Sequence record: NZ_CP084013.1
From: a plasmid
Reading direction: 5' to 3' (one strand)
Length of the DNA: 64,000 bases
A program made the translations under genes and the position numbers. Numbering within the stretch: position 1 is the stretch's first letter; every line of letters starts with the position of its first letter. Below, piece after piece: positions 9,197-50,409 of this stretch. The notes beneath the pieces were generated by a model. The model was not told the DNA's origin, searched no databases, and was given only the letters and a program-made list of their open reading frames with translations.

Positions 9197-9233
9197 CCTA
9201 ATCTCCCGACCATTGCGGTCGGGATATTTTTTT
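9197..9233 (+). terminator. rho-independent terminator
   Basis: cccgac cattgc ggtcggg hairpin followed by a T8 run. Confidence 0.6.
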
Positions 9234-9276
9234 TGGATATCGCCACCAACCGAAAAACGGGTATTTTCAATAGAAT

Positions 9277-9306
9277 ATCGGTTAATAACAACATCAAAAT
9301 CTATCG
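9277..9306 (+). promoter_or_regulatory. motif-2 copy (GAATATCGGTTAATAACAA)
   Basis: shared with the upstream regions of the FtsK-like, ParA-like, rep and 53539..54207 genes. Confidence 0.5.
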
Positions 9307-9314
9307 TGGAATAT

Positions 9315-12300: not shown

Positions 12301-13634
12301 TCTCTTTGCAACGCAAAGCGGCTTTAATCCCTACGACGTTGAGACAAACCCAGCAATGGCTATACGTCAAAGACATCAGGAAGATATCCAACGCGCCTCA
12401 TCGTTGTCTGACCGTTGGAAGCCCTGACCATTCGTTCCTCATCGCTGATTACGTGCCGACCCATAATACGATGGCGGCGTTCAGCCTGTTTCTGCAATGG
12501 TCGAAGATTGACGCGCGTGACGGTAAAGGCAAGACCCCGTGCATTTACATTAATCCGAAGGCCGGTAATGATTTGGAGGATGCGACCCGTTCGCAGGGTG
12601 GTACGGTCATCCGGTTGGATTCCGATGTGGCCAACGGCACGTTCGACCCGTTCAACGTGATTCCGAATGTGGAGGAGGCCAAGGAAATCGCCGTCCTGAT
12701 GATGACGAACATTCTTGGCGGTGACACAAAGATGGAATCCGCCATGACAGCCATGCTGGATTACGGCGTCAAACACGGGGCGCGTTACGTAGGCCGGGCT
12801 CTGCTTGTCGCCGCCCAAGCTGTTGCGAAGACCATCAAAGCGGGGAACACGGCGGAGTCCATTGGGTTGCCTTCCAACACCCTCGAGGTGTTTTCGACAA
12901 TCAGCATGAACCTGAAGGCGAACCAGGGACTACGTCTTATCTTCGGCACCGATAATGACACCAAGCCGTTGACGATCAGCCAAAACCTGACCCTCATCAA
13001 TGCCGGAGACCGTTCACTCATCCCCGAAGGCCAAGATGATTCCATGACCGCTCGCATCCGCCAGTGGACGTTGCGAATGGTCGTCATGGGAGCCGGCACC
13101 GCCGTTCGAGGCCGCGATGGCATGGTAGGTGTCGATGAGGCATGGGTGTTCATGGGCAAGGACAAGGGAGCTTCCCGAACCTTCGAACAATGGGTGCGTA
13201 TGGCCCGTTCGCAACGATTCACGCCTGTCATCATCAGCCAGAAAGTGCAGGAGTTCATCGATGCCGACTTGACCGGAGGTATCAGCCGCGCCCTCCTTCT
13301 GGCGTTGGACAACCCGGAAGAAGCCAATGGCACGGTCAGTCCGGCCAAATCAGCGGAACGACTCCTAGGCATCGAAGACCCCAATGGTCGGATCTTGCAG
13401 CGCATGGGAGCCGATGATACTTTGGACAACGGTCAGCCGAACCCGAACAGTCTGAAGCGCCTGGTAAGCGCATCGACGAGGAAGACCGTTCGCGGAGCCG
13501 TCGCCTATTTCAAAGACGGGTCCAAGCAGCCTATTCCAGTGGAAATCGTGATTCCTCCGGCATTGTTGAAGGAAATCAGCACCACTGCCACGGACAAGAT
13601 CGCACGAGAACAACGAAAGAACAAGGAGCAGTGA
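9315..13634 (+). CDS. VirB4/TraE-like conjugative ATPase interrupted by an intein
   Basis: Walker A GDTGSGK|...|T is split by the insertion; Walker B VDEAWVFMG downstream; the first ATG after the upstream terminator is taken as start (the ORF track opens at a TTG at 9213). Confidence 0.75.
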   Translation: MPRGNFYRPESFISPASEYGLLRSATPDRTVWLYARIPWSTALLDGANDRKRNDAAQQLMAFFDGLANQVTVAGMRYRYMLQSEYREFHLLTGSMPVRYSPPASMRDTDLGRYQAQYYRSQKVCKQFAVIGVPLKLVGDHSNNRKPGMLQRALTWYDRMCYSVANGCPMFEEYLPDAHNIERIMLNAGLEPFTIMDEQEREQLVAMMESWWVGRANSSALPILAENAHVHFFPDNATCAHAKNLYDNGVDCTEWNIDEEYPASICFARTADFNQSSITDPNNLWIARLMEVGRAGGANAVATSIRGKVEPAKVTADQIRRNSRTIDESIKERYEKGHEAPGDMTEIKERLDYKKAIYNTPDMPPSIIDLSVATCVAGNEQMAIDALGCIPNIEFVNLTTASEQLMAFKSMQACSNVRMTPYEIHWAATCVAGGGVSSFAKAGDRDGALVGLSEANRQPVYIGTTTVQDKDRRPILAIIGDTGSGKAVHISSTIPVPPQASFPHGKMAKISDLHEGDLVYGRDGKPYPLLKLHPIHTEDLYEVTLSDGQTIKASGNHQWIVSDFKDRNKFRKPKHLKSQQRKNMLSETYDELCRMSDALPAQSTMSVNELAEFVHPVTSRWWSGESNAKTIAAALRFMGVESHQEQRDRAIADTKKPFKTRQNCRRYNTQEALRALIAHYDGVAQHAKRWNDLARERADVLRKHLEDNYPKGISITDIQKMLEDRSPSRSSIASVIKTLNPISEWDTEERIHSDRMRHDSVSVYNVREACRAIGQRMMLRYEGAFNETNSLGYCEQVVTTRDMLASGLKDSGNRAQWAIRAAMPVANPQADLPLDPWVLGAWLADGSIGTGIIASDNRNGDLQHVKSCLTSAGFSLGSINTPMVVNVKGLVSILRDMGILREKRIPEIYFSASIEQRLSLVQGLLDQDGTISSNGNIEFTQSADHLPIVRGMVRLLRSLGIVVHEPHLNKAGYTADGVRHEAQDRYRITFTTDLPVFSLQRKAALIPTTLRQTQQWLYVKDIRKISNAPHRCLTVGSPDHSFLIADYVPTHNTMAAFSLFLQWSKIDARDGKGKTPCIYINPKAGNDLEDATRSQGGTVIRLDSDVANGTFDPFNVIPNVEEAKEIAVLMMTNILGGDTKMESAMTAMLDYGVKHGARYVGRALLVAAQAVAKTIKAGNTAESIGLPSNTLEVFSTISMNLKANQGLRLIFGTDNDTKPLTISQNLTLINAGDRSLIPEGQDDSMTARIRQWTLRMVVMGAGTAVRGRDGMVGVDEAWVFMGKDKGASRTFEQWVRMARSQRFTPVIISQKVQEFIDADLTGGISRALLLALDNPEEANGTVSPAKSAERLLGIEDPNGRILQRMGADDTLDNGQPNPNSLKRLVSASTRKTVRGAVAYFKDGSKQPIPVEIVIPPALLKEISTTATDKIAREQRKNKEQ
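10770..12467 (+). other. intein (566 aa) with LAGLIDADG homing-endonuclease domain inside the VirB4 P-loop
   Basis: N-extein ends GSGK and the C-extein resumes TMAAFSLF, restoring GxxGxGKT; the insert ends ...ADYVPTHN before +1 Thr; two LAGLIDADG blocks (LGAWLADGSIG, LVQGLLDQDGTIS); Hint-like N-terminal block DLVYGRDG. Confidence 0.75.
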
Positions 13635-17440: not shown

Positions 17441-18751
17441 CTATCTGGATGGTTTGCGCCGCCAATAGTCATGCACCGGATGCCCATCACGATCGTGGGA
17501 GACGACATGCACCATGCCATTGTCGGGAAGGACGAAGCGTTGAGGACTTGGCATGCCACTGTTCGCGACACGAATCTTGTCCAACAGCTTGGCCTGCAGT
17601 TCCGGGGCCAGATCCATATACGCAGTATGCGCATTCAACCGGACCAAGTCGCTGATGCGGATAGCCTCGTCTCGTGCAGTGTCGGAATCGAATCCACAAT
17701 AATCAGCCAACCTCGCATAATGGTCCGGCGTCACTTCACTGGCATGCTCCGCTCCTGAGAATGGCATCGCGAGCTTGTCCGTCAACCCCGGCCATACAGT
17801 CGTGGTCATCACATCGTATGCTGGGCTTAGTTTCCAGGACTCACCATCCAGCGAAGTAGGCATGACTGAATAGTTACGGGCATGCGCATCGCAATTATCG
17901 ACAGCCACGTTGAAGGCCAATCGTCGCAGCCACTCCTCCCCCAGTCTGCCGGACGGATCCATCTTCCGTAGGGTGGTCAGCGTATCGACGGCACTCACCT
18001 TGTACTTCTCGGATGATGGTAGGCCCAATGCCTGCACCATATCCTCCATCGGCAGACGAACCGGCATACCATTTTCGATACGACGATCGAACCGTTCCAC
18101 GATATAGGTCTGCTGGCCGTTGAATTCCTGGATATCCGACTCCGGGGTTTCGATGCCGACCATCTTGGAAAGCATCATGGTCGCATGTTCTACTTCATCA
18201 GCGTCATAAATGCCGGCCGGTTTAAGAATATGAGTCGACGGAACGGCGCCATTGGGCCACACCCATTCATCGCCTACACGGGACAAGGAGAATTTGCCTT
18301 GAGCTCCTGCCAAGGAAAATCTGGCACCTTTGTTCCTGACGAACCATGAATCAGGCGTCCGTTTGACGGCGGCAATACGTGTCGCGATTTCGTCATCGGT
18401 TGCTTCTGCAGGAGGCACACTGGCAATAGTCGGCATCTCATCGTTCCGAGAGAACACCAGCGCACCAGCTGAATCCACGTTTTCCAGCAAGTCGAAGGAT
18501 TCCTGAGATTTCGCGCCGACTGCCTGCATCATGGCATACTTGGCGGCACCTGATTCCGGGAGTAAATTTTCTAGAAAATTCTCCGGTGCATCCTCGCGCC
18601 ACTCTCCATCTTTCGGGAGGCTGAAACTTATCCGTGGAGCATTCCAATCATACTCAAACGCGACTCCTCGTTTGAGAGAGGTGAACACGCCAACGTGGGA
18701 GCCGTTCATCCAGACGTTTAGCCGATCACCTTTTCTCATGCCACCACGCAT
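17441..18751 (-). CDS. hipA: HipA-family Ser/Thr kinase toxin
   Basis: HipA N-terminal region followed by the catalytic motif VDNCDAHARNYS and SPAYDV. Confidence 0.75.
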   Translation of the reverse strand: MRGGMRKGDRLNVWMNGSHVGVFTSLKRGVAFEYDWNAPRISFSLPKDGEWREDAPENFLENLLPESGAAKYAMMQAVGAKSQESFDLLENVDSAGALVFSRNDEMPTIASVPPAEATDDEIATRIAAVKRTPDSWFVRNKGARFSLAGAQGKFSLSRVGDEWVWPNGAVPSTHILKPAGIYDADEVEHATMMLSKMVGIETPESDIQEFNGQQTYIVERFDRRIENGMPVRLPMEDMVQALGLPSSEKYKVSAVDTLTTLRKMDPSGRLGEEWLRRLAFNVAVDNCDAHARNYSVMPTSLDGESWKLSPAYDVMTTTVWPGLTDKLAMPFSGAEHASEVTPDHYARLADYCGFDSDTARDEAIRISDLVRLNAHTAYMDLAPELQAKLLDKIRVANSGMPSPQRFVLPDNGMVHVVSHDRDGHPVHDYWRRKPSR

Positions 18752-19701: not shown

Positions 19702-20751
19702 TCAGCCCAACAAAACCCGCGACACCGCCCCCTCATCAGGCAACCCGGAATCCAACAATTCAGCCAAACGCGACGCAACACGATCGGCATCAACACCGGT
19801 GAACATGCCACCCATCCATTCGGACATCAGCGTCCGGACATGCTCGCAGTCGGCGGAATGCACGTGACGTGCGGGACCTTTGCTCTCATCCACTACTTCA
19901 GCCTCAAGGGGAATATCAGCCGACTCGCTCTGCGCAGTCTGTCGCGTTGGAGCATCGGTGCGAGGATAATACTTGATCCCATGCCTGAACGGTTCGGCCC
20001 TCAAATTCGGAGCCGCCTCCAAGACATTCGACAACGCCTGTTTGAACCTGCGCCGGAAGTCCTTCATCGGCAGGCCGGTGCCCTCGAACTGGTCATACAG
20101 TTGACGCCATGAAACGTAGGCGACGTGGTCGAGCCGGTATGTGCGGTACGTCAACCATATATAGACGTCCAACGCCCGCGCCGATTTGCCCAGACGCGAG
20201 ATGACATCCATGCTGAGTGGGACGCTTGGCTTCGACAGCTCGGCCCACATCTCGTCCGTGAACTGGATTGACGCGATGATGTCCTGTTCTGGCCTGAACT
20301 GTGTACGGCCTTTTCTGGCGACGGTGAACGGCGTGCATTCGCCTTTGTTCTCACGACTCTCGTCGGTGTTCATGATGGAGATCGAGGTTCGCGCCAAGTT
20401 CATCAGCGTGTCCTCCGTCTCTTTCTGACAGCCGGAGTGGTTGGATATTCCGGTGTTGTCGCAGAATTCCTGGAAGCTGCCACGAAAGACAACAGTGTGG
20501 GTGTCCTGATCCACGTCGGGATTGTTCTTCATGCGAATCATGGACTGCACGTAGAGGAATATCAGTCGCGGGGTTTTCCCGTAGACCCATTCCTCGGGGC
20601 GACTGGGGGTTATGCGGACTGTTTCCCGACCGTTCGTTCTCTCTATGTAGGATGAGCTTGGTTTCGACACGGGGAAGAGGGCGAGTTTCGCCATGAGCGG
20701 CGGTGCGCCCGTGTTCATTTTCGTTGTGGCGATGGCGTTATTATTGGTCAT
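19702..20751 (-). CDS. RepA-like iteron-type replication initiator (paralog 1)
   Basis: paralogous to 42011..42991 (shared MTNN start and DVYIWLTYRTYRL / DVYVWLTGTFRNL blocks); an iteron array lies immediately 5'; family assignment not verified. Confidence 0.5.
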   Translation of the reverse strand: MTNNNAIATTKMNTGAPPLMAKLALFPVSKPSSSYIERTNGRETVRITPSRPEEWVYGKTPRLIFLYVQSMIRMKNNPDVDQDTHTVVFRGSFQEFCDNTGISNHSGCQKETEDTLMNLARTSISIMNTDESRENKGECTPFTVARKGRTQFRPEQDIIASIQFTDEMWAELSKPSVPLSMDVISRLGKSARALDVYIWLTYRTYRLDHVAYVSWRQLYDQFEGTGLPMKDFRRRFKQALSNVLEAAPNLRAEPFRHGIKYYPRTDAPTRQTAQSESADIPLEAEVVDESKGPARHVHSADCEHVRTLMSEWMGGMFTGVDADRVASRLAELLDSGLPDEGAVSRVLLG

Positions 20752-41269: not shown

Positions 41270-42020
41270 CAGCGATAGGCCACGATCTTGTTCAGGATTT
41301 CCTTTTGTTCGGCGAAATCACCAGAAGCAAGAAGAATCATGGCCGTCGCTCGACTCCGCAAGGAAAATCAAGTGGACAACACCCTCCTAGGAGATCAAGA
41401 TCGTGGCCTATCGGTGTAAATGTATTCACCGATAGGCCACTATCGTTCGTTCTCGTTCTTACTGCTATAAAAGAGTATGTCCAGTATGTAGTATGACTAT
41501 AAGCACTGCCCGTCAGCCCTTATAGGAGAAGCGGTTTGAGCAGGTTCGTTACACCGATAGTCCACGGATTCGGCAGTGATATTCCACGGAAACGACACTG
41601 ATAGGTCACTAAAACAGCAGCGATAGTCCACTATCATTGCATGGATACTCCACGTTGCAAGACCATCGTCAAAGGCGATTGCACCGATAGTCCATCATTG
41701 GATGCACCGATAGGCCACTATCCGCGAAAAGTGCCGGATAGTGGCAGTATACAAGGCATGGAACCGTCGGATAAGCAACGCAGTAATACTGCGGAAGAAA
41801 GGTTTTTGCACCGATAGGCCATCAACAGAGACAAGAAAACAGCATCGATAGGCCACTACGTGTGGGATGAAATCCACGAATCAACTTCAAAAAAATTGGG
41901 AAACTGCACCGATAGGCCACGTGTCGATACAGCGATATGCCATCAGCATCAAAAACCGACTGCATTAAGCACTGATCTGCATCAGCGAATAAGGTGGGAC
42001 GATTAGTGGCCTATCGCTGC
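41270..42020. repeat. array of at least 12 copies of CACCGATAGGCCAC-like 14-mers (both orientations)
   Basis: copies near 41276, 41403, 41428, 41551, 41596, 41620, 41685, 41708, 41738, 41810, 41848, 41901, 41926 and 42005; about 750 bp without a credible ORF. Confidence 0.7.
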
Positions 42021-42991
42021 CAATCGCCCCGCCCCTCGTCCAAAGCACGCCGTTCCGCCTTGGGTGGGACGGACGTTGGCGACGGGTGCAGGATGATGCC
42101 GTCCCGGGTGGTTTCCACGTTCGCGGCGGGATACACGTCGTGAATCTTCTTCAATGCTTCACGGAACTTGGCTTTGAACACGCGGCGTTCCTTGATGCTG
42201 TCGCCGAAACGTCCGTGCAGCCAATCCCAATCCAATGTGAGGTCGTGATGCAGGTTGCGGAATGTTCCGGTCAGCCACACGTACACGTCGTAGGGGAGCA
42301 CTGATTTGCCGGACAGCAGGTAGTTGGTGGCACGAGTGTCGAATGGTGCCGACTCCTGGGCGAGCCTGTCCCACACTTCATCGGTGAGGATGAACTTGGC
42401 GCCGCTGAAATCCTGATTATTGTTATCGTTCAGGAAGCTGACGGCCTTCACCATCTGCATGTTCACGGAGTCGAACCGATCCCGGTTGCCCGCAAACCCG
42501 GTTTTCTGCCTGATGCTGATATGACAGTACAGGAGACGGCGCAACTGTTCCTGCAAACGTTTCGATGACTGTCCTCCACGGGGTATGCCGAGCTCTTCGG
42601 ACAACTGGTACATGCTGGGAATCGTGATGGTGTGCTGCGACGGGTCAACGGTCGGGGTTTTCCTTGTTCCCGCAGAGCGAATCTGCTTTGCCATCCACGC
42701 CATCAACAGTCGGGGATATTTCCCGTAGGGGAAGTCCCTTGACCTGGTGAGGCTATCGATACCGGCTTCGAGGATGTATTCGACGGTACTGTTGTCTTTG
42801 CTGACGAAGTCGGTGCCTTCCGCCGGGGGAGTGGCGGGGAAAAGGGTGCTGGTGAGGATGCTGTGCCCGTACCAGATTTCCTTACTGTCCGGCAAACGGT
42901 TTTCGATGTCTGAGATCGTGGCTACCCGGTCGAGCACGAGGTCGGTTGAATGGGTAGCTGGTTTCGTGTTGTCCGGACTGTTGTTGGTCAT
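42011..42991 (-). CDS. RepA-like replication initiator (paralog 2)
   Basis: paralog of 19702..20751; 14-mer array at its 3' side; motif-2 copy about 110 bp upstream. Confidence 0.5.
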   Translation of the reverse strand: MTNNSPDNTKPATHSTDLVLDRVATISDIENRLPDSKEIWYGHSILTSTLFPATPPAEGTDFVSKDNSTVEYILEAGIDSLTRSRDFPYGKYPRLLMAWMAKQIRSAGTRKTPTVDPSQHTITIPSMYQLSEELGIPRGGQSSKRLQEQLRRLLYCHISIRQKTGFAGNRDRFDSVNMQMVKAVSFLNDNNNQDFSGAKFILTDEVWDRLAQESAPFDTRATNYLLSGKSVLPYDVYVWLTGTFRNLHHDLTLDWDWLHGRFGDSIKERRVFKAKFREALKKIHDVYPAANVETTRDGIILHPSPTSVPPKAERRALDEGRGDWQR

Positions 42992-43750: not shown

Positions 43751-44136
43751 TGGGGCTGACAGGCTTTCGATAGCCTGCCGGAAACCATTTGCTACGTGCC
43801 GGAGGCCGGTAAGGACAACCGTCATCAACCTTGCCACAAGAATAGACGCCAACACCGTTTCTTCTTCCCGTTTCACCCTCGTAGCGTGAAACCCGACTTT
43901 GATCCCATTGCCGATTAACGGGTCAAAGCCGGAAAACTTTGAATCGGACTGGTCGGACAGTCGGACGATGGATTCGCCCGACCAGTACATGAACATCGTC
44001 TACAAGCCGTGCGGGTTCGCCGAACGCACCCGTCCACGGATGATCTTCCCCACGCAAGTGGGGATAAACCTACGCACGTGACAGCAAGCAAAGGCTGACA
44101 GCAGGCCAGATCCGAGTTCGATTCTCGGCAGCTCCA
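43751..44136 (+). ncRNA. ssrA: tmRNA (ssrA-like), tag reading frame (A)NTVSSSRFTLVA
   Basis: 5' GGGGCUGACAGGCUUUCGAUAGCC matches the tmRNA P1/P2 consensus; 3' GAGUUCGAUUCUCGG CAGCUCC A forms a T-arm with an acceptor strand complementary to the 5' GGGGCUG; tag ORF GCC AAC ACC ... GTA GCG TGA at about +95. Confidence 0.6.
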
Positions 44137-44244
44137 CGACCCTGATCCATCTCCCATGAGCTTGTGCAGACTCACGGTCTGCGGGTACAGATGAATCGGG
44201 CACGGTACGCATCGCACCGTGACGGACGACAGAAGCGATGCACC

Positions 44245-44326
44245 GGTGGTGTGGCCCAGCGGCGACGGCAGCAGACTGTAAATCTGCGACAAGGAAACAC
44301 CGGAGGTTCGAGTCCTCCCGCCACCA
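44245..44326 (+). tRNA. tRNA-Tyr(GTA), long variable arm
   Basis: acceptor GGUGGUG/CGCCACC, anticodon loop cuGUAaa, T-loop UUCGAGU. Confidence 0.65.
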
Positions 44327-44525
44327 CTATCCGCCTGGTTGCAAACAGGCGGATTAACAGGTAGCGGCGCCTTCAAGGCCGTGCTGTGGTTTTCGTTTGC
44401 ACACAGTATCTAAACAACAAACGGATTTTATCCGCTGTCAGGCCAGTCTCATTAGTCTGACAGCGAACGGTAAAAGCCGGAATGATACGCGCCATGAGAC
44501 GACGCGTTCCGGCCGGCTTCGTAGC

Positions 44526-44585
44526 TCAAACGGCGGAGCATGCATGGTTGGTGGTTCGAATCCACCCGGAGCCACGTTTTTGACA
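44526..44585 (+). pseudogene. tRNA-like element lacking the anticodon arm (60 nt)
   Basis: acceptor, D-arm and T-arm (GGUGG UUCGAAU CCACC) present but only 10 nt between D and T arms. Confidence 0.35.
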
Positions 44586-44821
44586 GGTCTTACAACCGGA
44601 GAGTCGAGGACTGTGAAGAAAAACTGGAAGAGCGTGCAAATCCTAGGTCGCACGCTTGGAAGGGGAGGTTTCGCAGGAGGTTAGGAAAACCGGTGGAGAC
44701 AGTCTAAACACGCGAAAGAATCAAGATGAAAGCATCGTGGTACTGGCTTAAGACGGTGCCAGAATCTGAGGAAATCGCGTTTAATAGGGCACGTACGTAG
44801 CTGGTAAGCCACGGAGTCCTG

Positions 44822-44895
44822 TCAAAAATATCGGATTGTGGCGCAGTTTGGTAGCGCACGTGCTTTGGGAGCATGGGGTCGCAGGTTCGAATCCT
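44822..44895 (+). tRNA. tRNA-Pro(TGG)
   Basis: cloverleaf with anticodon loop uuUGGga. Confidence 0.65.
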
Positions 44896-44975
44896 GTCAA
44901 TCCGACTCGGAGACCAGCCATCCCTCTTTCGGCTGGCGGACTATACGTCACCGCCGTGCGACGTATCCGAAAAAA

Positions 44976-45050
44976 GCACGGCAATGCGGATGTGGTGCAG
45001 TGGCAGCACGCCTGCTTCCCAAGCAGGAAACCGCGGGTTCGAACCCCGTC
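44976..45050 (+). tRNA. tRNA-Gly(CCC), CCA encoded
   Basis: acceptor GCGGAUG/CAUCCGC, loop uuCCCaa. Confidence 0.7.
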
Positions 45051-45185
45051 ATCCGCTCCATCCGGAAAACCAAAACAATGGATCTGATCCAACAATGGGA
45101 CTCGTAACCGTCCTTTCCATGGGACGTTTCCGGAGAAACATGGACGAACAGCCTCGGCATGGGCGCACATCGTCTAGGAAGAAAA

Positions 45186-45257
45186 CATGCCAGTCGCCCC
45201 GGTAGCTCAGAGGAAGAGCAGGTGCCTTTTAAGCACTGGGTCCGGATATCGTAATTC
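45186..45257 (+). tRNA. tRNA-Lys(TTT), atypical T-loop AUCGUAA
   Basis: acceptor GCCCCGG/UCGGGGC, loop cuUUUaa. Confidence 0.55.
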
Positions 45258-45431
45258 CGTCGGGGCACGATGCTTGGTACATCGCCGAGCATAAGCGCAT
45301 CAATCTATTATCGGATAGGCTGCGGCAACTTCTTCTTCCGGCCGCGCGCGAAACAAGGGAAGGAAAACACACAGTGCGACGGACCAGGGAAGGGCCTATA
45401 ACCCAGATCCCATAACAGTCCGTCGTACGGT

Positions 45432-45503
45432 GCCTCTGTAGCTTAAATGGTAGAGCAACGGTCTGAAGCACCGTGGATGCTGGTTCGATTCCAGACGGAG
45501 GCA
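45432..45503 (+). tRNA. tRNA-Phe(GAA)
   Basis: loop cuGAAgc, T-loop UUCGAUU. Confidence 0.6.
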
Positions 45504-45831
45504 CGAAGCAATCCATCCGATCAATGGACTGCTTTCAGGGAGTGATCGAACAATCGCATCGGAAACGAGGCGATAAGATGAGCCGGGCCCGGCAGGGTGG
45601 TTTGCGACCGAACCGGCGGCACGTCCAGAGGGGATCTGACATGATCTCGTTTGTCCTCGACGTTGCTGGTAAAACCCAATCCAGTCTCCCGATTCCCCTC
45701 CATCTGTCATTCAGGACGGATGGGGAGGACGCTCTTTTTGCAGCGATGGTCTCCGGAGCGACATCAATGAGGACCATGCCGAACACGGCCCGGCACAGGC
45801 GTACGTCGTTAAAGGAACGAAATGTGCCATC

Positions 45832-45907
45832 GCCCTCGTAGCTCAATCGGATTCAGAGCGTTGGTCTACGGAACCGGAGGTTGCGGGTTCGAACCCCGCC
45901 GAGGGCA
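45832..45907 (+). tRNA. tRNA-Arg(ACG)
   Basis: acceptor GCCCUCG/CGAGGGC, loop cuACGga. Confidence 0.7.
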
Positions 45908-45958
45908 CTCGGAGCAGGAAGCTATTCCGCTGCCTATCTTCGGCTTCCTGCTCCACAT

Positions 45959-46033
45959 GCGTCGGTAGCTTAACGGCAGAGTACCGGTCTCCAAAACCGG
46001 TGGGTGTGAGGTCGAGACTCACCCGACGTGCCA
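45959..46033 (+). tRNA. tRNA-Trp(CCA), CCA encoded
   Basis: anticodon stem CCGGU/ACCGG, loop cuCCAaa. Confidence 0.6.
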
Positions 46034-46157
46034 GGACGGTATTGTTTGGCTCCTTACTCACTCACGGATTCGTCAAGCCGAATGATACCGTTCCACCCGG
46101 TTCCGATCGTCGTTTGAAGGATTTCCTATTCTCTTCGGCTGTTCGACCGGAACCATC

Positions 46158-46239
46158 GCCCCGTTGGCGGAACTGGTAGACGCATCCGGCTCAAACCCGG
46201 ATTCCTGACGGAGTGAGGGTTCAACTCCCTCATGGGGCA
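46158..46239 (+). tRNA. tRNA-Leu(CAA), long variable arm
   Basis: loop cuCAAac, T-loop UUCAACU. Confidence 0.65.
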
Positions 46240-46493
46240 CTATCCGTTGGAACCTTTTCGCACTCGCTTTGAAAAGATTTCAACGGATATTCTTCCGATT
46301 GGCGTGCCTAGTTTCTTTCTTCTTTCATTGACAGGTACGGCATGTTCCAGCTGCCTTGGAGTCGGACAGTGGAAGAAAAAAACGACTCCAAATAATCTTG
46401 GATGGCCGGTTTGAAAACAGATAACCAATGCGAAATTACTCCTTTGGAAAAGGGTTGTCGCTTTTTCTTGAACCACCCGGCCATCCACCATCC

Positions 46494-46568
46494 GCTTCCG
46501 TAGCTCAGTGGAATCAGAGCAGACGGCTTCTAATCGTCCGGTCGTGGGTTCGAATCCCACCGGGAGCA
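46494..46568 (+). tRNA. tRNA-Arg(TCT)
   Basis: loop cuUCUaa, T-loop UUCGAAU. Confidence 0.7.
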
Positions 46569-46618
46569 CGAGATCCACACGAATACGTCAACCAGTTTGT
46601 TCCTTCGTGCGGATCGGT

Positions 46619-46703
46619 GGAGTAGTGGCAGAGCGGTCGAATGCGACTGTCCCGAAAGCAGCAGGGGCGCAAGCCCCCGGAGGTTCGAATCCTCCCTACT
46701 CCG
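46619..46703 (+). tRNA. tRNA-Ser-type (long variable arm), anticodon tentatively CGA
   Basis: acceptor GGAGUAG/CUACUCC, T-arm GGAGG UUCGAAU CCUCC; anticodon loop parse ambiguous (C33). Confidence 0.45.
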
Positions 46704-46782
46704 CGAACCCCGCATGAAAATCGTTCCCATGAGGGGTTTATCGAGGTTTGGCCGGTGTGCCCCGTACTGAAAACACTGGCAT

Positions 46783-46868
46783 GGATGGTGGGCCGTGCGG
46801 CAAAGGCGCAGTCCTGCTAAGACTGTTGGGGCGGAAGTCCCTGGCGAGTTCGACTCTCGCACCATCCG
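46783..46868 (+). tRNA. tRNA-Ser(GCT), long variable arm
   Basis: anticodon stem CAGUC/GACUG, loop cuGCUaa. Confidence 0.65.
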
Positions 46869-46985
46869 CTAGCCGATCTGCAGTGATAGGCCACGGGATA
46901 GGACCTGGAATCCAGTCAGCAAAACGGGTTGGATCGGCATGGCGGAACGCAGTCGGGCATACGTGTCCGATGCGTTCGCGCACAT

Positions 46986-47056
46986 TCCTCCTTGGTGTAA
47001 CGGCAGCACACGGGTCTTTGGAACCCATAGTCCTGGTTCGAAACCAGGAGGAGGAG
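46986..47056 (+). tRNA. tRNA-Gln(TTG)
   Basis: U1-A72, loop cuUUGga, T-loop UUCGAAA. Confidence 0.6.
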
Positions 47057-47164
47057 CTTAGCGGCAGCACCTCGAATTGATTTTCCCTCTACACTCGATT
47101 CGACGTTTGTTGTACCGGACATACAGGAGGTCAGGCGCCAACCCAAGCCGCGAAACGACGCCAC

Positions 47165-47237
47165 GCCCTTGTAGCTCAGTGGATAGAGCGTCCGTCTCCG
47201 GAACGGAAGGCCACGAGTCCGATTCTCGTTGAGGGCA
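47165..47237 (+). tRNA. tRNA-Arg(CCG)
   Basis: loop cuCCGga. Confidence 0.65.
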
Positions 47238-47332
47238 CGCACGAAAACTCCGCCAACCATAATGCACGGAGCCCTTCTTCTCTTCTCTCTCAAACCGTCG
47301 CGCCTCGTACGGCTCGTGCATCACGAGGCAAC

Positions 47333-47405
47333 GCCCTTGTAGCTCAACGGATAGAGCGCCGGTTTCCTAAACCGGGCGCAGCCGGTCCGACTCCGGCCAT
47401 GGGCA
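47333..47405 (+). tRNA. tRNA-Arg(CCT)
   Basis: anticodon stem CCGGU/ACCGG, loop uuCCUaa. Confidence 0.65.
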
Positions 47406-47409
47406 CGAT

Positions 47410-47483
47410 GCCTTGTTAGCTCAGTCGGTTAGAGCGCGGAGCTCATAACTCCATGGTCGTTGGTTCAAGCCCAACACGAGGCA
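47410..47483 (+). tRNA. tRNA-Met/Ile2 (CAT) copy 1
   Basis: loop cuCAUaa, T-loop UUCAAGC. Confidence 0.6.
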
Positions 47484-47615
47484 CTAGGATACCGTCGTCA
47501 ACGTCACCGCCTGTTCTCTCGATCCATGGGGAATGGGGATGGAGCGATGGATGGCATTGCAGCTTTTAGTCCTTTCAGCTTAGGCTAAGCCGTTCAGCGT
47601 CGGCATCCGATAATC

Positions 47616-47689
47616 GCATTGCTAGCTCAGTCGGTTAGATCACCCTGCTCATAACGGGGAGGTCGTTGGTTCGATTCCAGCGCAATGCA
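47616..47689 (+). tRNA. tRNA-Met/Ile2 (CAT) copy 2
   Basis: acceptor GCAUUGC/GCAAUGC, loop cuCAUaa. Confidence 0.6.
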
Positions 47690-47820
47690 CGAGTGCCGTA
47701 TTTTGACGGTTCCCGCACTCGGTAAAAACGGAACCGTTGGAGTCCCGACCGGCCTCCGTCGTGATAAATCCCCGGTCAGGCAAACGCATGGGTCGTACGA
47801 TCATGACGCGCAACCGTGCG

Positions 47821-47890
47821 GGGCGTTGGTGTAATGGCAGCACGCCACCCCCTGTGGGTGGAGATCCGGGTTCGAATCCCGTGGCGTCCG
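47821..47890 (+). tRNA. tRNA, anticodon uncertain (possibly CTG, Gln)
   Basis: T-arm CCGGG UUCGAAU CCCGU; anticodon stem CCACC/GGUGG; short, G-U-rich acceptor. Confidence 0.4.
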
Positions 47891-47931
47891 CTAAGGAATC
47901 CGCTTCTGATACGGTGTGCGGATTCCTGTTT

Positions 47932-48003
47932 GCGGTGTTAGCACAACGGTTAGTGCCTCAGTCTTCCAAACTGATTACGCGGGTTCGATTCCCGTACACC
48001 GCT
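47932..48003 (+). tRNA. tRNA-Gly(TCC)
   Basis: acceptor GCGGUGU/ACACCGC, loop cuUCCaa. Confidence 0.7.
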
Positions 48004-48421
48004 CGATACGATTCCATGCCCGTTGGGAGTTCCCGGCGGGGAAGCCATGACCATGCGACTCGTGTCCGATGATCCGCGCCTCCGTTTGTTCGACGGACAC
48101 GCGGATATCGCCGGCGCCCATCATTCCAGGATGATGCGAACAGCCCCCGTCGGAGGGGTCGGCGCGAATCCGATCTGCCCATCCGCCAAGTGCGGACAGG
48201 GTTTCCTGAGTCGTAATCGATTACGCCTCTTGTCAGCCGATCCACATGATGTGGAAACGGTCTCGGTGGAGCATGGGCGTCATAGCCCGTGATCCTCGTC
48301 ATGCCTCATGCCGTAGTATGCGCGTCCACCGCAAGCATGAGTGCAAGGATCCGGCACGAGTGGCCGGATCGATTGTGGACTGTGCGGATATTGCGACCTC
48401 GCAAGGGTGGTATCCGCACAT

Positions 48422-48495
48422 GCTTTCGTAGCCCAACCGGTAGAGGCAACAGTCTAAGGAACTGTCCAGTCCGGGTTCGAACCCCGGCGAAAGCA
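48422..48495 (+). tRNA. tRNA with anticodon AAG (class I, atypical)
   Basis: acceptor GCUUUCG/CGAAAGC, anticodon stem ACAGU/ACUGU, loop cuAAGga, short variable arm. Confidence 0.45.
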
Positions 48496-48756
48496 CCAGC
48501 GGAAGCAACGGCGTCAACGCCACCCGATCCGGTTCGAACGTCTGACGGAACGGGAACGATGCTACGGTAGGTTCTCTCCATAACTGGGACCCGTAACCGT
48601 TGCAGCGCCCACTTCCGCTCATATTCTTGCGGAATATGATGTCAACGCCACCACCCGCCCGCTGCCATATTGGGGCGGAGTGGAACGATGGTCAAGGCGC
48701 AGGCCTGCACCTCAGTGGCCTGAACAGAACCGCCTCTCCAGCATCGTATCCGCAAC

Positions 48757-48831
48757 ACCGCTTCGTCCTTTAACGGTAGGATGCTCTGTTTTTTTTTGGA
48801 GTAATGCGGGTTCGAATCCCGTCGAAGCACG
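48757..48831 (+). pseudogene. degenerate tRNA-like sequence with T9 run in anticodon region
   Basis: T-arm GCGGG UUCGAAU CCCGU present but the anticodon arm is disrupted. Confidence 0.3.
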
Positions 48832-48968
48832 ATGGGCCCAGTGGCCACATGCGAAAAAACTGGGTTCCCGAATGGGAGCAGTCTGTGGCCGATGGCATGA
48901 ACCGGCCGCAGGACAAGCATCCCTGCCTCGCATGGCCCATCCGCCGTTCCTCATGCCGGAACGGTTCC

Positions 48969-49041
48969 GCCGTCGTAGCTCAGCTGGCAGAGCAGCGCCC
49001 TCGTAATGCGCAGGTCACCGGTCCGAATCCGGTCGATGGCT
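48969..49041 (+). tRNA. tRNA-Thr(CGT)
   Basis: acceptor GCCGUCG/CGAUGGC, loop cuCGUaa. Confidence 0.65.
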
Positions 49042-49066
49042 CTTTCTCCACTAAAAACCGACCTGT

Positions 49067-50409
49067 TTGGCCTTTCGCTGTTTGGTGTGGGTGGGTCTGT
49101 CAGGTGGTGACGGTGCTGAGGTCGAGTTTGCCGCAGGTCAGGTAGATCATGGTGCTGAAGTAGCCCATGTTCTTGAATCCGCGGGCTCGGGTCTTGACGT
49201 TCTGGATGACGCTGTTGAGTCCTTCGAGGATCGCGTTGGTGTAGGGGTGGTCGAAGTAGGCGAGGATGTCCCGCCAGTGGCGGCGTATCTGGCGGGCGAA
49301 CTCTTTCATGGGTTCGAGTCGGGAGCGCGTCATCCACGAGCACAGACGCTTGAGGGCCGTCTCGGCCTCGGCTCGATCGGCGCTGGTGTCGTAGATGTCC
49401 TGGAGGGTCTCGCGCATCTGACAGGCGCGTCCGGTTTTCAATCGTCGCCGTTGCAGGCTGCGCTTGGTTTCCAATTGCAGGCCGGTCAGGTTCGATTCGT
49501 TCCTCAACCACAGGTACTTGGTCCGCTTGAGCAGCGCGTTGCCGCGGGCCTCCTGTTTGCGGACCTTGTCGACGGCCTCGTTGGCGTGTTTGATCACGTG
49601 GAACTTGTCGATGATTCTCGCCGCGTTGGGCAGCCGCTCGCGGATGCCCTTGGCGAACCCCAGGCTCATGTCGCAGGTAACCAGACGCACCCGGTCGGGA
49701 TCGCCGTTGTGATCCATGAAATCCCGCGCGAACCGTTTGATCGTGGTCGAGTCCTTGCCCGGGACCACGCAGATTACGTTGCGCTCCACCAGGTCGGCGA
49801 CCACGGTGATGTACCGGTGGCCCTTCCGGCTGGTCTCGTCGATGCCTATGGCCTCCACGCCCGTGTAGTCCTCGTAAAGCCTCGCCTCGTCCACGTAATG
49901 GCGGATGAACCGCCACAGGCGGGTGTCATGTTCGCCGACCTGCTCGGCGATGTCCGCGACCGGCTGGCTTTTGGCCAGCTCCACGACCATCGCCTCGAAC
50001 AGGAGCGTGAACCCGCTTCCCGGCCTCGCCCACGGCACCGGGACCGCGTGCACGCCGTGGGCGGGGCACGTCACGCGCGGCACGCCCGCGTGAATGAACG
50101 CCTTGTACTGGAAGAAGTTCAGATGCCGCCACACGCGCTCCCTCGCGTCATGCACCGGACACGCGGCCTCGCCGCACCCCGGTTCCGGGCAGGGGAACCG
50201 CGAACCCGCCGCGAACCCGATCGCGATATGCAGTTCCCGTCTGCCGTCCTCCTCGTCACGGAACTCCACGCCCGACACCCTCCACGGGTCAGGCAGTTGC
50301 AGAGCGGCGGTGAACAACGACGTGGTATCCATACCCCCCAAACTACCCGACCAGCACCACCACCCCCCGACCCACTCACCCACACCAAACAGCGAAAGGC
50401 CAAAAAATA
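49067..50409 (-). mobile_element. ISL3-family insertion sequence
   Basis: about 32-bp terminal inverted repeats TTTGGCCTTTCGCTGTTTGGTGTGGGTG at 49067-49097 and 50361-50397 (inverted), flanking a transposase gene. Confidence 0.65.
49100..50332 (-). CDS. ISL3-family transposase
   Basis: MDTTSLFTAALQLPDPWRV N-terminus and overall ISL3 transposase architecture (410 aa). Confidence 0.8.
   Translation of the reverse strand: MDTTSLFTAALQLPDPWRVSGVEFRDEEDGRRELHIAIGFAAGSRFPCPEPGCGEAACPVHDARERVWRHLNFFQYKAFIHAGVPRVTCPAHGVHAVPVPWARPGSGFTLLFEAMVVELAKSQPVADIAEQVGEHDTRLWRFIRHYVDEARLYEDYTGVEAIGIDETSRKGHRYITVVADLVERNVICVVPGKDSTTIKRFARDFMDHNGDPDRVRLVTCDMSLGFAKGIRERLPNAARIIDKFHVIKHANEAVDKVRKQEARGNALLKRTKYLWLRNESNLTGLQLETKRSLQRRRLKTGRACQMRETLQDIYDTSADRAEAETALKRLCSWMTRSRLEPMKEFARQIRRHWRDILAYFDHPYTNAILEGLNSVIQNVKTRARGFKNMGYFSTMIYLTCGKLDLSTVTT

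Follow-up and report, generated by a model that had tools for sequence, protein, structure and literature searches.

The tmRNA-linked tRNA array unit of a pMP7017-family Bifidobacterium megaplasmid: gene content, codon match and non-canonical members

The plasmid sequence record NZ_CP084013.1 was analysed over a stretch of 64,000 nucleotides, referred to here as the window, which holds a transfer-messenger RNA (tmRNA) gene followed closely by 20 tRNA genes. The carrier is a conjugative megaplasmid from human-gut Bifidobacterium that belongs to the pMP7017 family and is closest to plasmids of B. longum, and the locus is its tmRNA and tRNA array unit. This array was already described between 2015 and 2024 (Bottacini 2015; Dineen 2021, 2024), and the present find is a rediscovery of low novelty. 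Absent from the literature searched are fixed C33, A54/U58, C55 and G54 changes in its tRNAs, an armless tRNA-like RNA of 60 nucleotides (nt), a 257-nt conserved block, and a tRNA-like gene with a poly-U anticodon loop.

Gene content and plasmid identity

Run on the whole window, ARAGORN returned 21 RNA genes in one cluster, all on the plus strand: the tmRNA and 20 tRNAs (44245-49042). These are listed below together with the two tRNA-like elements and the conserved block that lie among them. Unless stated otherwise each gene was called by ARAGORN, and the bit scores are those of Rfam.

43752-44137, plus strand: tmRNA with tag peptide ANTVSSSRFTLVA (RF00023, 84.5 bits)
44245-44327, plus strand: tRNA-Tyr(GTA), canonical at the checked positions (55.0 bits)
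44515-44574, plus strand: armless tRNA-like RNA, 60 nt (Rfam tRNA model, 44.8 bits, with 13 anticodon-arm positions deleted)
44575-44831, plus strand: ultra-conserved, purine-rich block of 257 nt between the armless element and tRNA-Pro
44832-44906, plus strand: tRNA-Pro(TGG) (64.6 bits)
44986-45060, plus strand: tRNA-Gly(CCC), CCA encoded (69.3 bits)
45196-45268, plus strand: tRNA-Lys(TTT), T-loop AUCGUAA (45.9 bits)
45432-45504, plus strand: tRNA-Phe(GAA) (59.9 bits)
45832-45908, plus strand: tRNA-Arg(ACG) (61.7 bits)
45959-46033, plus strand: tRNA-Trp(CCA), CCA encoded, G54 (57.0 bits)
46158-46240, plus strand: tRNA-Leu(CAA), class II (54.1 bits)
46494-46569, plus strand: tRNA-Arg(TCT) (64.7 bits)
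46619-46704, plus strand: tRNA-Ser(CGA), C33, anticodon loop CCCGAAA (48.3 bits, same register)
46783-46869, plus strand: tRNA-Ser(GCT), G8, 8-bp acceptor stem possible (tRNA-Sec model, 43.8 bits)
46986-47057, plus strand: tRNA-Gln(TTG) (53.8 bits)
47165-47238, plus strand: tRNA-Arg(CCG), C55 (62.5 bits)
47333-47406, plus strand: tRNA-Arg(CCT), C55 (57.0 bits)
47410-47484, plus strand: first CAT tRNA, non-initiator, Met elongator or Ile2 (63.6 bits)
47616-47690, plus strand: second CAT tRNA, non-initiator, possibly Ile2 (55.8 bits)
47821-47891, plus strand: atypical tRNA "Gln"(CTG), loop CCCUGUG, C33, U37, one connector nucleotide (30.4 bits)
47932-48004, plus strand: tRNA-Gly(TCC) (67.6 bits)
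48422-48498, plus strand: class-I tRNA with anticodon AAG, 77 nt, A73, CCA encoded, Leu-type D-arm (55.0 bits)
48759-48830, plus strand: tRNA-like gene with poly-U anticodon loop (29.6 bits; ARAGORN at a relaxed setting)
48969-49042, plus strand: tRNA-Thr(CGT), C55, the last gene of the array in the window (57.2 bits)

To count as a tRNA array unit (Tran et al. 2016), a region must hold 20 or more tRNA genes, with 2 or more of them per kb; here 20 genes occupy 4798 bp, a density of 4.2 per kb. The first of them begins 108 nt downstream of the tmRNA, which matches RF00023 over its full length (gathering score 47) and contains the tag reading frame. Against the tRNA model RF00005 (cmscan), 18 of the 20 tRNAs score between 45.9 and 69.3 bits and Gln-CTG scores 30.4 bits, with 19 of the 20 passing the gathering score of 29 bits, which both tRNA-like genes also exceed. 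An earlier reading of this DNA, made from the sequence alone, had named a majority of low-scoring pseudogenes as the result that would overturn it, and these scores show the opposite.

That sequence-only reading had folded 20 cloverleafs by hand, and its gene list proved identical to that of ARAGORN, the one tRNA left with an uncertain anticodon being ARAGORN's "Gln"-CTG. All four standard Arg isoacceptors (ACG, CCG, TCT, CCT) are present as claimed, and the two CAT tRNAs and the class-I AAG tRNA were recovered by ARAGORN and Rfam alike. The same is true in Rfam of the two sequences it had called degenerate and tRNA-like, at 44515-44574 and 48759-48830. Its remarks on the odd Lys T-loop and on the occasional encoding of CCA (3 of the 20 genes: Gly-CCC, Trp and AAG) also held. 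By anticodon the array covers 12 amino acids, or 13 if one CAT tRNA is Ile2.

Several members required closer attention to their identity. Neither CAT tRNA is an initiator, since both have G1:C72 and lack three G:C pairs (GGG/CCC) in the anticodon stem. The antisense strands of both match the Rfam Plastid-ycf2 5'UTR model at 35-40 bits (39.5 for the second). If this model is taken to represent antisense plastid trnI-CAU, the match is a hint that one or both CAT tRNAs are Ile2 and read AUA, a codon that is 2-3 times enriched on the plasmid. The AAG tRNA combines a 5-nt variable loop and G37 with a Leu-type D-arm (a 3-bp stem and an 11-nt loop, xAACyGGUAGA, like that of the class-II Leu-CAA), and resembles a tRNA-Leu from which the long variable arm has been lost. 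Sister plasmids hold a paralogue of it with the loop CCUAAAC.

For Ser-GCT, Rfam prefers the clan member tRNA-Sec (gathering score 47) over the general tRNA model. A tRNA-Sec reading was rejected, as the score of 43.8 bits falls below the gathering score and the anticodon is GCU. Similarly, a "permuted tmRNA" proposed by relaxed ARAGORN at 44350-44906 was rejected because it borrows the T-arm of tRNA-Pro and is not called at default stringency. A second tmRNA is further disfavoured by the C3:G70 pair of the armless element, which is therefore not an alanine acceptor like tmRNA, as alanylation needs G3:U70.

In the slot of Arg-TCT, the commonest allele of the sister arrays (L003 7439-7513, L004 7266-7340 and 37 further loci) is labelled "tRNA-Pyl(CTA)" by ARAGORN. 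Aligned in register it shows a compensatory change at 29:41, and it was re-read as an allele of Arg-UCU in which the anticodon stem is weakened (G27.A43 and A31.C39). The amber-suppressor register (loop UUCUAAC) is an unlikely alternative for this allele.

The identity of the carrier rests on homology and synteny with published plasmids. Megablast against plasmid records matched the array to five Bifidobacterium megaplasmids of 184-198 kb, with identities over the array of 96.0-98.1% to four B. longum plasmids and 92.2% to B. breve pMP7017. The gene order RepA, tmRNA, Tyr, tRNA-like element, Pro and onwards is common to the window and the sister plasmids. Arrays of this kind had been called typical of phages and megaplasmids in the sequence-only reading, and the carrier here is a conjugative megaplasmid of the pMP7017 family. 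When the array was compared by megablast with 50,697 phage records, only short tRNA-Pro matches were found. More distant sampling relied on a 23-nt search anchor, taken from the armless element where its D-arm and T-arm join in an unusual way. With this anchor no relatives of the array were found in GTDB species-representative genomes; the family was found only in plasmid records, IMG/VR contigs and gut metagenomes. Two array-bearing metagenome contigs far exceed plasmid length (L059, PVML01016918.1, 1.58 Mb; L060, OKVT01000001.1, 549 kb), and reflect either chromosomal integration, co-integration or misassembly.

The published description is detailed. Dineen et al. 2024 (PMC10832533) reported on pMP7017 a "tRNA array unit" whose 20 tRNA genes form three tandem transcription units, next to a tmRNA with the tag ANTVSSSRFTLAA and with a manA motif at the homologous place; it is this published combination that makes the present finding a known one. 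By RNA-seq, 17 of the 20 tRNAs and the tmRNA of pMP7017 were highly transcribed in standard culture, and these authors argue that the tRNAs fit the cellular pool to the way in which the plasmid uses codons. In their Table S5 the armless element, a class-I Leu-like gene and the poly-T element appear as "tRNA-OTHER", with no further analysis.

Conservation among related arrays and codon supply

Contigs with the same array, 6 from IMG/VR and 82 from human-gut metagenomes, were retrieved with the 23-nt anchor. The resulting population set comprises 1327 tRNA calls and 288 distinct sequences from ~90 related arrays. Within it, compensatory double changes were found at ~30 stem base pairs, and disrupted pairs are very few. 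Thr-CGT has 6 such pairs, Trp 5, AAG 4 (all in the anticodon stem), the Leu-like UAA gene of sister arrays 4, Gln-CTG 3 and Leu-CAA 2, with single pairs elsewhere. The tRNAs are mostly better conserved than the spacers that flank them; their fastest-changing parts are the anticodon stems, in which the changes are compensated. The loop of Gln-CTG is conserved across the population. As changes in the stems are almost always compensatory, the tRNA genes are functional and even the strangest members are under selection.

The array is modular. Slots for Cys-GCA, the Leu-like UAA gene, the second CAT tRNA and extra Lys copies have been gained or lost between arrays, two contigs carry an extra block of six genes, and whole alleles have been swapped.

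This turnover could also be expected of a decaying relic, in which a tRNA cluster of phage or chromosomal origin has been reduced mostly to functionless pseudogenes. Such a relic would account for the two non-decoding tRNA-like genes, the length-variable homopolymer in one of them, the low Rfam scores of 30.4 and 29.6 bits, and the truncation of the array by an insertion sequence in the window, as well as for gene gain and loss. However, a relic is difficult to reconcile with the high Rfam scores of 18 of the 20 tRNAs, with compensatory changes that extend to the atypical members, and with tRNAs that are better conserved than their spacers. The strong published transcription and the non-random match of anticodons to plasmid codon use, set out below, also oppose it, and decay is now scarcely credible and close to refuted. 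The population data together with the published transcription instead describe a functional and evolving set of RNA genes.

Codon usage provides a statistical view of what these genes may be for. Host and plasmid codon tables were taken from Table S6 of Dineen et al. 2024 (PMC10832533), and the codons of the window from 42 non-overlapping open reading frames (ORFs; 15.8 thousand codons, third-position G+C (GC3) 0.66). A comparison of anticodon coverage with host codon usage had been proposed along with the sequence-only reading. Relative to B. breve, codons with a Watson-Crick cognate tRNA in the array are enriched in the window, with a median log2 ratio of 0.66 against 0.03 for uncovered codons (Mann-Whitney p = 0.0033). 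For pMP7017 and the anticodon set of the whole family, the corresponding values are 0.55 and -0.13 (Mann-Whitney p = 0.0002). The eight most plasmid-enriched codons are AGA, ATA, AGG, GGA, ACA, CCA, GGG and AAA, six of which have a cognate tRNA in the window. ATA could be read by a CAT tRNA if this is Ile2, and the cognate of ACA, Thr-TGT, is retained in sister plasmids. This enrichment test offers independent statistical support for the published codon-supply model.

The array is probably best regarded as a set of tRNA genes, expressed and maintained in structure, that serve mainly to supplement the host pool for codons that are enriched on the plasmid. The AT-richer plasmid uses AGA, AGG, GGA, GGG, CCA, AAA, CAA, CGG and AGC more than its host, and the array would supply the matching isoacceptors. 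The supplied tRNAs would then allow efficient translation of plasmid genes across different Bifidobacterium hosts, and ribosomes that stall nonetheless would be rescued by the neighbouring tmRNA. Locus identity, gene content, selection on the cloverleafs and the match of anticodons to codons are established directly by the present analysis. Transcription is taken from the published work on pMP7017, and the effect on translation is inferred.

Several observations weigh against codon supply as a sufficient account. The host baseline is the published B. breve table, while the probable host is B. longum, and against the B. longum column of the same paper the signal is weak (p = 0.012 for the window and 0.31 for pMP7017). 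This "B. longum NCIMB8809" column of Table S6 looks too AT-rich for a genome of 60% G+C (CAA 0.55, CCA 0.25), and the inference by Dineen et al. 2024 of a B. longum-like codon usage of the plasmid rests on it. Around a third of the members serve codons that are not enriched, namely Tyr, Phe, Trp, Arg-ACG, Ser-CGA, Gln-CTG and largely Thr-CGT. Moreover, 8 of the 20 tRNAs deviate at near-invariant positions in ways that are fixed across the population and might impair ordinary decoding, and the armless and poly-U-loop elements are two members that are unable to decode at all.

Non-canonical tRNAs, tRNA-like RNAs and flanking elements

Deviations were scored against the tRNA consensus in absolute terms. 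Ser-CGA has C33, in a register confirmed by the Rfam alignment, and Gln-CTG has C33 together with U37 and a single connector nucleotide. Ser-GCT has G8. The remaining changes lie in the T-loop: Lys-TTT has A54 and U58 in a loop, AUCGUAA, that is closed by U53.U61, Trp has G54, and Arg-CCG, Arg-CCT and Thr-CGT all have C55. According to Grosjean & Westhof, U33 is almost invariant in elongator tRNAs, and they name no exceptions other than eukaryotic initiators (C33) and Candida tRNA-Ser (G33). Across the population the deviations were found in the following numbers of copies.

C33, Ser-CGA: 50/50
C33, Gln-CTG: 39/45
C33, Leu-like UAA (sister arrays): 43/46
C33, second Arg-ACG type (sister arrays): 7/7
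C33, AAG tRNA (polymorphic): 18/44
A54/U58, Lys: 78/78
A54/U58, Thr-TGT (sister plasmids): 26/29
G54, Trp: 64/64
C55, Arg-CCG: 52/52
C55, Arg-CCT: 48/51
C55, Thr-CGT: 38/41

In the AAG tRNA, one anticodon-stem haplotype occurs with U33 in 23 copies and C33 in 5, and the other with U33 in 3 copies and C33 in 12. The presence of both bases on both haplotypes indicates recurrent change at position 33.

As a control, 56 tRNAs of two tRNA-rich phages (XacN1 and a T5-like phage) were passed through the same pipeline. Both phages have C33 in Ile-GAU, and the T5-like phage has it in Leu-UAG as well (4-10% in the controls); the frequency of C33 in the window does not differ from that in the phages (2/20 vs 4/56, Fisher p = 0.65). 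C33 was thus rejected as unique to the plasmid. Its occurrence in unrelated phages makes it a recurring trait of mobile-element tRNAs, and it may be a general and undescribed one; position 33 is not mentioned in the eLife paper on nuclease evasion or in a 2025 computational study of phage tRNAs. When 433 kb from other Bifidobacterium species was searched with relaxed ARAGORN, the calls were mostly false positives and the five real tRNAs all had U33. The T-loop deviations behave differently from C33, being present in 5 of 20 window tRNAs and 0 of 56 phage tRNAs (Fisher p = 0.0008). Identical T-loop deviations arise in different tRNA families, that is, convergently.

These non-canonical features hint at a second role, for example evasion of tRNA-targeting nucleases. 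The corresponding rival holds that the array, or at least that subset of its tRNAs which codon use leaves unexplained, is a counter-defence or counter-toxin system, with variants that resist the tRNA-targeting nucleases or toxins of recipients, competing elements and phages and so sustain translation once conjugation has brought the plasmid in; the tRNA-like RNAs that do not decode might serve as decoys. The idea has precedents, having been proposed for phage tRNAs in the eLife paper and discussed for mycobacterial plasmid arrays. It would explain why several members decode common codons, why C33 is fixed in Ser-CGA, predominant in Gln-CTG and recurrent in the AAG tRNA, why anticodon stems change fast with compensation, and why T-loop deviations are frequent in the window, absent from the phage controls and convergent between families. 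The RNA ligase, HAD phosphatase and three TROVE/Ro60-like genes beside or inside the arrays of sister plasmids, described below, also fit.

The targets of characterised nucleases provide a further, suggestive link. The tRNAs cut by mycobacterial VapCs (Ser-TGA/CGA, Gln-CTG, Leu, Trp-CCA and Cys-GCA) overlap with array members. The PARIS nuclease AriB cleaves Lys-UUU and Thr-UGU, and more weakly Thr-CGU and Asn. In E. coli, recognition by AriB depends on U39 and on U16/U17 of the D-loop, and the array Lys-UUU lacks both determinants, having G39 and a D-loop, AGAGGAA, without U16/U17.

However, the overlap with nuclease targets is not statistically compelling, as an array that covers so many isoacceptors is expected to overlap with them by chance. 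No tRNA nuclease, PrrC/RloC-like gene or defence gene was found among 10 large ORFs of the window, C33 is no more frequent here than in the phage controls, and the deviations could reflect relaxed constraint or another use. Counter-defence is hence rather unlikely as the explanation of the array, although it could operate beside codon supply as a second function. The two functions suggested from the sequence alone have accordingly fared differently: compensation for codon usage is borne out by the enrichment test and by the published analysis, and the evidence for resistance to anti-tRNA defence is circumstantial.

The two tRNA-like RNAs bear on the same question. The armless element combines a D-arm and a 7-bp acceptor stem with a T-arm (canonical loop UUCGAAU) and an A as discriminator, and has no anticodon arm. 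It is identical in 92 of 93 loci, and the search anchor fixed only 23 of its 60 nt. Because bacterial Y RNAs of the YrlA type mimic the same acceptor, D and T arms, a YrlA reading was considered. A tRNA-like module without a decoding anticodon arm is indeed present at 44515-44574, but the reading is unsupported, with no Ro60-binding helix, Y RNA hit or Ro60 gene in the window. Y RNA models gave no hit at E <= 1, and tblastn found no TROVE gene in the window.

Immediately downstream lies the 257-nt block. No other non-tRNA sequence of the locus is as conserved as this block, whose mismatch rate is 0.0030 against 0.02-0.18 in the other spacers. It is 100% identical to pMP7017, while the nearby RepA region is ~85% identical. 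Its predicted fold has an energy of -82.1 kcal/mol (z = -3.5), with a 12-bp helix joining its ends. The block has no Rfam match, no convincing ORF and no relatives outside the plasmid family, a distant phage search included. It is a candidate for a new structured RNA that would be released by the flanking tRNA-type processing sites.

The poly-U-loop gene has in the window an 8-nt anticodon loop consisting entirely of U, within a T9 run. Across relatives the T-run is 5, 7, 8 or 9 nt long (e.g. L001 8414-8481, L002 9395-9465). Two allele families exist, with a 4-bp stem of either CUCU/GGAG or CCCC/GGGG, a compensatory difference, and a 6-nt GUUUUU loop; expansion of the run to 7, 8 or 9 is confined to one of these families.

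Taken together, the selectively maintained deviant tRNAs, the two non-decoding tRNA-like RNAs and the 257-nt RNA might form a plasmid "RNA island", so that part of the array would serve something other than ordinary codon supply. This proposal is tentative and we regard it as doubtful at present. If it holds, the island would keep translation running, or decoy effectors, when tRNA-targeting nucleases or toxins act during plasmid entry and maintenance. The recurrent change from U33 to C33 and the remodelling of T-loops would then be general and undescribed escape routes of mobile-element tRNAs.

Beyond the tRNAs, the locus contains a possible regulatory RNA and several hairpins, and it is bounded by a replication gene and an insertion sequence:

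42011-42991, minus strand: RepA gene, upstream of the tmRNA (Pfam RepA_C; annotated as RepA in sister plasmids, with synteny as in pMP7017)
45522-45695, plus strand: manA-like RNA (Rfam RF01745 over its full length, 48.2 bits, E = 3e-10)
45694-45741, plus strand: terminator-like GC-rich hairpin followed by CUCUUUUU (U-tract), directly 3' of the manA-like RNA (-25.6 kcal/mol, z = -3.8)
45911-45955, plus strand: intergenic hairpin with a 13-bp stem (-25.6 kcal/mol, z = -4.5)
49066-50404, minus strand: ISL3-family insertion sequence with 53-nt terminal inverted repeats (49066-49118 and 50352-50404)

The conserved blocks of manA are present (GGGAGUGA / UAAG.UGA / GGUA..AAUCC..CUCCC), but the score lies under the RF01745 gathering score of 55.2, and the RNA is treated as manA-like rather than as a certain member of the family. 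The manA motif has been proposed as a cis-regulator or riboswitch of 5' untranslated regions (UTRs); here no ORF follows, and the next gene is tRNA-Arg(ACG), which is an unusual setting for such a motif. Should the RNA be a regulator, it would control tRNAs or mark the end of the first transcription unit.

The intergenic hairpin was placed at 45907-45958 by the sequence-only reading and was found at 45911-45955. Comparable hairpins lie 3' of Tyr, Leu-CAA, Gln-CTG and the manA-like RNA. The 3' trailers of Tyr (44329-44354) and Leu(CAA) (46241-46288) both start with UAUCCG and form strong hairpins (z = -5.5 for the latter), which are possible shared signals for processing or termination.

These elements raise the question of whether the array could be a silent reserve tRNA operon that is induced by translational stress, as is the 26-gene trn operon of Anabaena PCC 7120. 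The manA-like RNA and the terminator-like hairpin could gate read-through to the downstream tRNAs, and the megaplasmid location, similar operon size and some atypical members also fit. Nonetheless, 17 of the 20 tRNAs of pMP7017 and its tmRNA are highly transcribed in standard culture, which makes a silent reserve highly improbable. Nor was a TrcR-like repressor or binding site seen, although no search aimed at one was made.

At its 3' end the array stops 23 nt short of the insertion sequence, in keeping with the earlier claim that it ends in an ISL3 element. The transposase (49100-50383, minus strand) matches Pfam DDE_Tnp_ISL3 (230 bits, 3.8e-68), HTH_Tnp_ISL3 and Zn_ribbon_ISL3, and with the terminal inverted repeats this assigns the element to the ISL3 family. 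Exact matches to the transposase were returned from two short contigs. No target-site duplication was found, the flanking 8-mers being ccgacctg and aaatactc. Homology to every sister plasmid stops at 49042-49068, and the sequence past the element is unrelated to their array flanks. The differing flanks and the loss of homology indicate a rearrangement breakpoint and not a simple insertion. An ISL3-associated rearrangement has removed Thr-TGT and Ala-CGC, with which sister plasmids continue the array, from this position.

Past the array, some sister plasmids encode a DRB0094-type RNA ligase and a HAD/NT5C-type phosphatase at a distance of ~1-2 kb (L001 10025-11713; L003 12331-14146). The ligase matches TIGR02306 at 112 bits, below the cut-off of that model, and Pfam PHA02142 OB-fold and RNA_ligase; the phosphatase is annotated as an IspD-like cytidylyltransferase. 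The two could be an RNA-repair pair. This RNA-ligase neighbourhood is absent from the window. In three sister arrays (L002 9735-11261, L054 and L058) a full-length TROVE/Ro60-like protein of 508 aa is encoded between Thr-CGT and Thr-TGT, and matches PDB 9l5y/9kop with E = 1e-25. No Y RNA model hit was found near these TROVE genes.

Other plasmid and conjugation genes of the window encode a VirB4-like AAA_10 ATPase, two FtsK/SpoIIIE-type ATPases, a lysozyme/CHAP hydrolase and a second RepA. A HipA toxin, two TnpB genes and a C5 DNA methyltransferase are also present. The VirB4-like conjugation ATPase (9213-13634, 1473 aa) contains a Hom_end (homing-endonuclease) segment at residues 938-1031, which suggests an intein. 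The HipA-family kinase toxin and the second RepA gene lie at 17441-18751 and 19702-20751, respectively, both on the minus strand. Published pMP7017 also encodes the TacT toxin, which acetylates aminoacyl-tRNAs; such a plasmid thus both manipulates and supplies tRNAs.

Significance and comparison with known systems

With the array itself already described, what is still of interest is its non-canonical but conserved tRNAs, the pair of tRNA-like RNAs that do not decode, and the invariant RNA of 257 nt. If the deviations are escape mutations against tRNA-targeting immunity or toxins, the array would be a tractable plasmid counterpart of phage tRNA counter-defence, and they would affect the spread of such plasmids among bifidobacteria. 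How far the array resembles other systems differs from feature to feature.

The armless element resembles YrlA, the partner of Ro60/Rsr, in that it mimics acceptor, D and T arms without an anticodon arm, and three sister arrays hold a TROVE/Ro60-like gene. RNase P processes the actinobacterial YrlA, to which CCA is added. The element differs in having no Ro60-binding helix, and the TROVE gene of sister plasmids lies ~5 kb from it.

The trn operon of Anabaena PCC 7120 is likewise borne on a megaplasmid, where ~26 tRNA genes supplement the chromosomal set. That operon, which TrcR controls, stays silent until translational stress sets in, whereas the pMP7017 array is highly transcribed under normal conditions.

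Arrays of tRNA-rich phages (T5-like, XacN1 and cluster C1 mycobacteriophages) are also dense, with odd or undetermined tRNAs interspersed and an occasional C33. An RNA ligase may lie nearby, and the hypotheses of codon compensation and nuclease evasion apply to both. Differences are the plasmid carrier and the hairpin-bearing spacers of 50-400 nt in the present array; in addition, the two phages checked are without the T-loop deviations that are frequent in the window.

The arrays of Mycobacterium (Morgado & Vicente 2018; Yano et al. 2026) are also found on actinobacterial mobile elements and cluster at least 20 tRNA genes. On plasmids, phages and chromosomes, these diverge from the chromosomal copies mainly in the D, anticodon and variable arms, and the plasmid arrays have been discussed as possible anti-defence systems (Morgado & Vicente 2018; Yano et al. 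2026). They belong to another genus, are unrelated in sequence and cover 19-20 amino acids compared to 12 here. The window array is skewed to rare codons and is linked to a tmRNA and a manA-like RNA.

The closest relatives are pMP7017 and the B. longum plasmids (Bottacini 2015; Dineen 2021, 2024), with which the array shares its replicon family, its position adjacent to RepA and the manA-like RNA. Compared to pMP7017, the window array lacks Cys-GCA, Ser-TGA and the class-I Leu-like UAA gene, and has lost Thr-TGT, Ala-CGC and the RNA-ligase neighbourhood at the ISL3-associated breakpoint. It is a copy of the B. longum type and adds Trp, Leu-CAA, Arg-CCG and two CAT tRNAs. Both plasmids carry the same two "tRNA-OTHER" elements and the same tmRNA, with a tag that differs by one residue.

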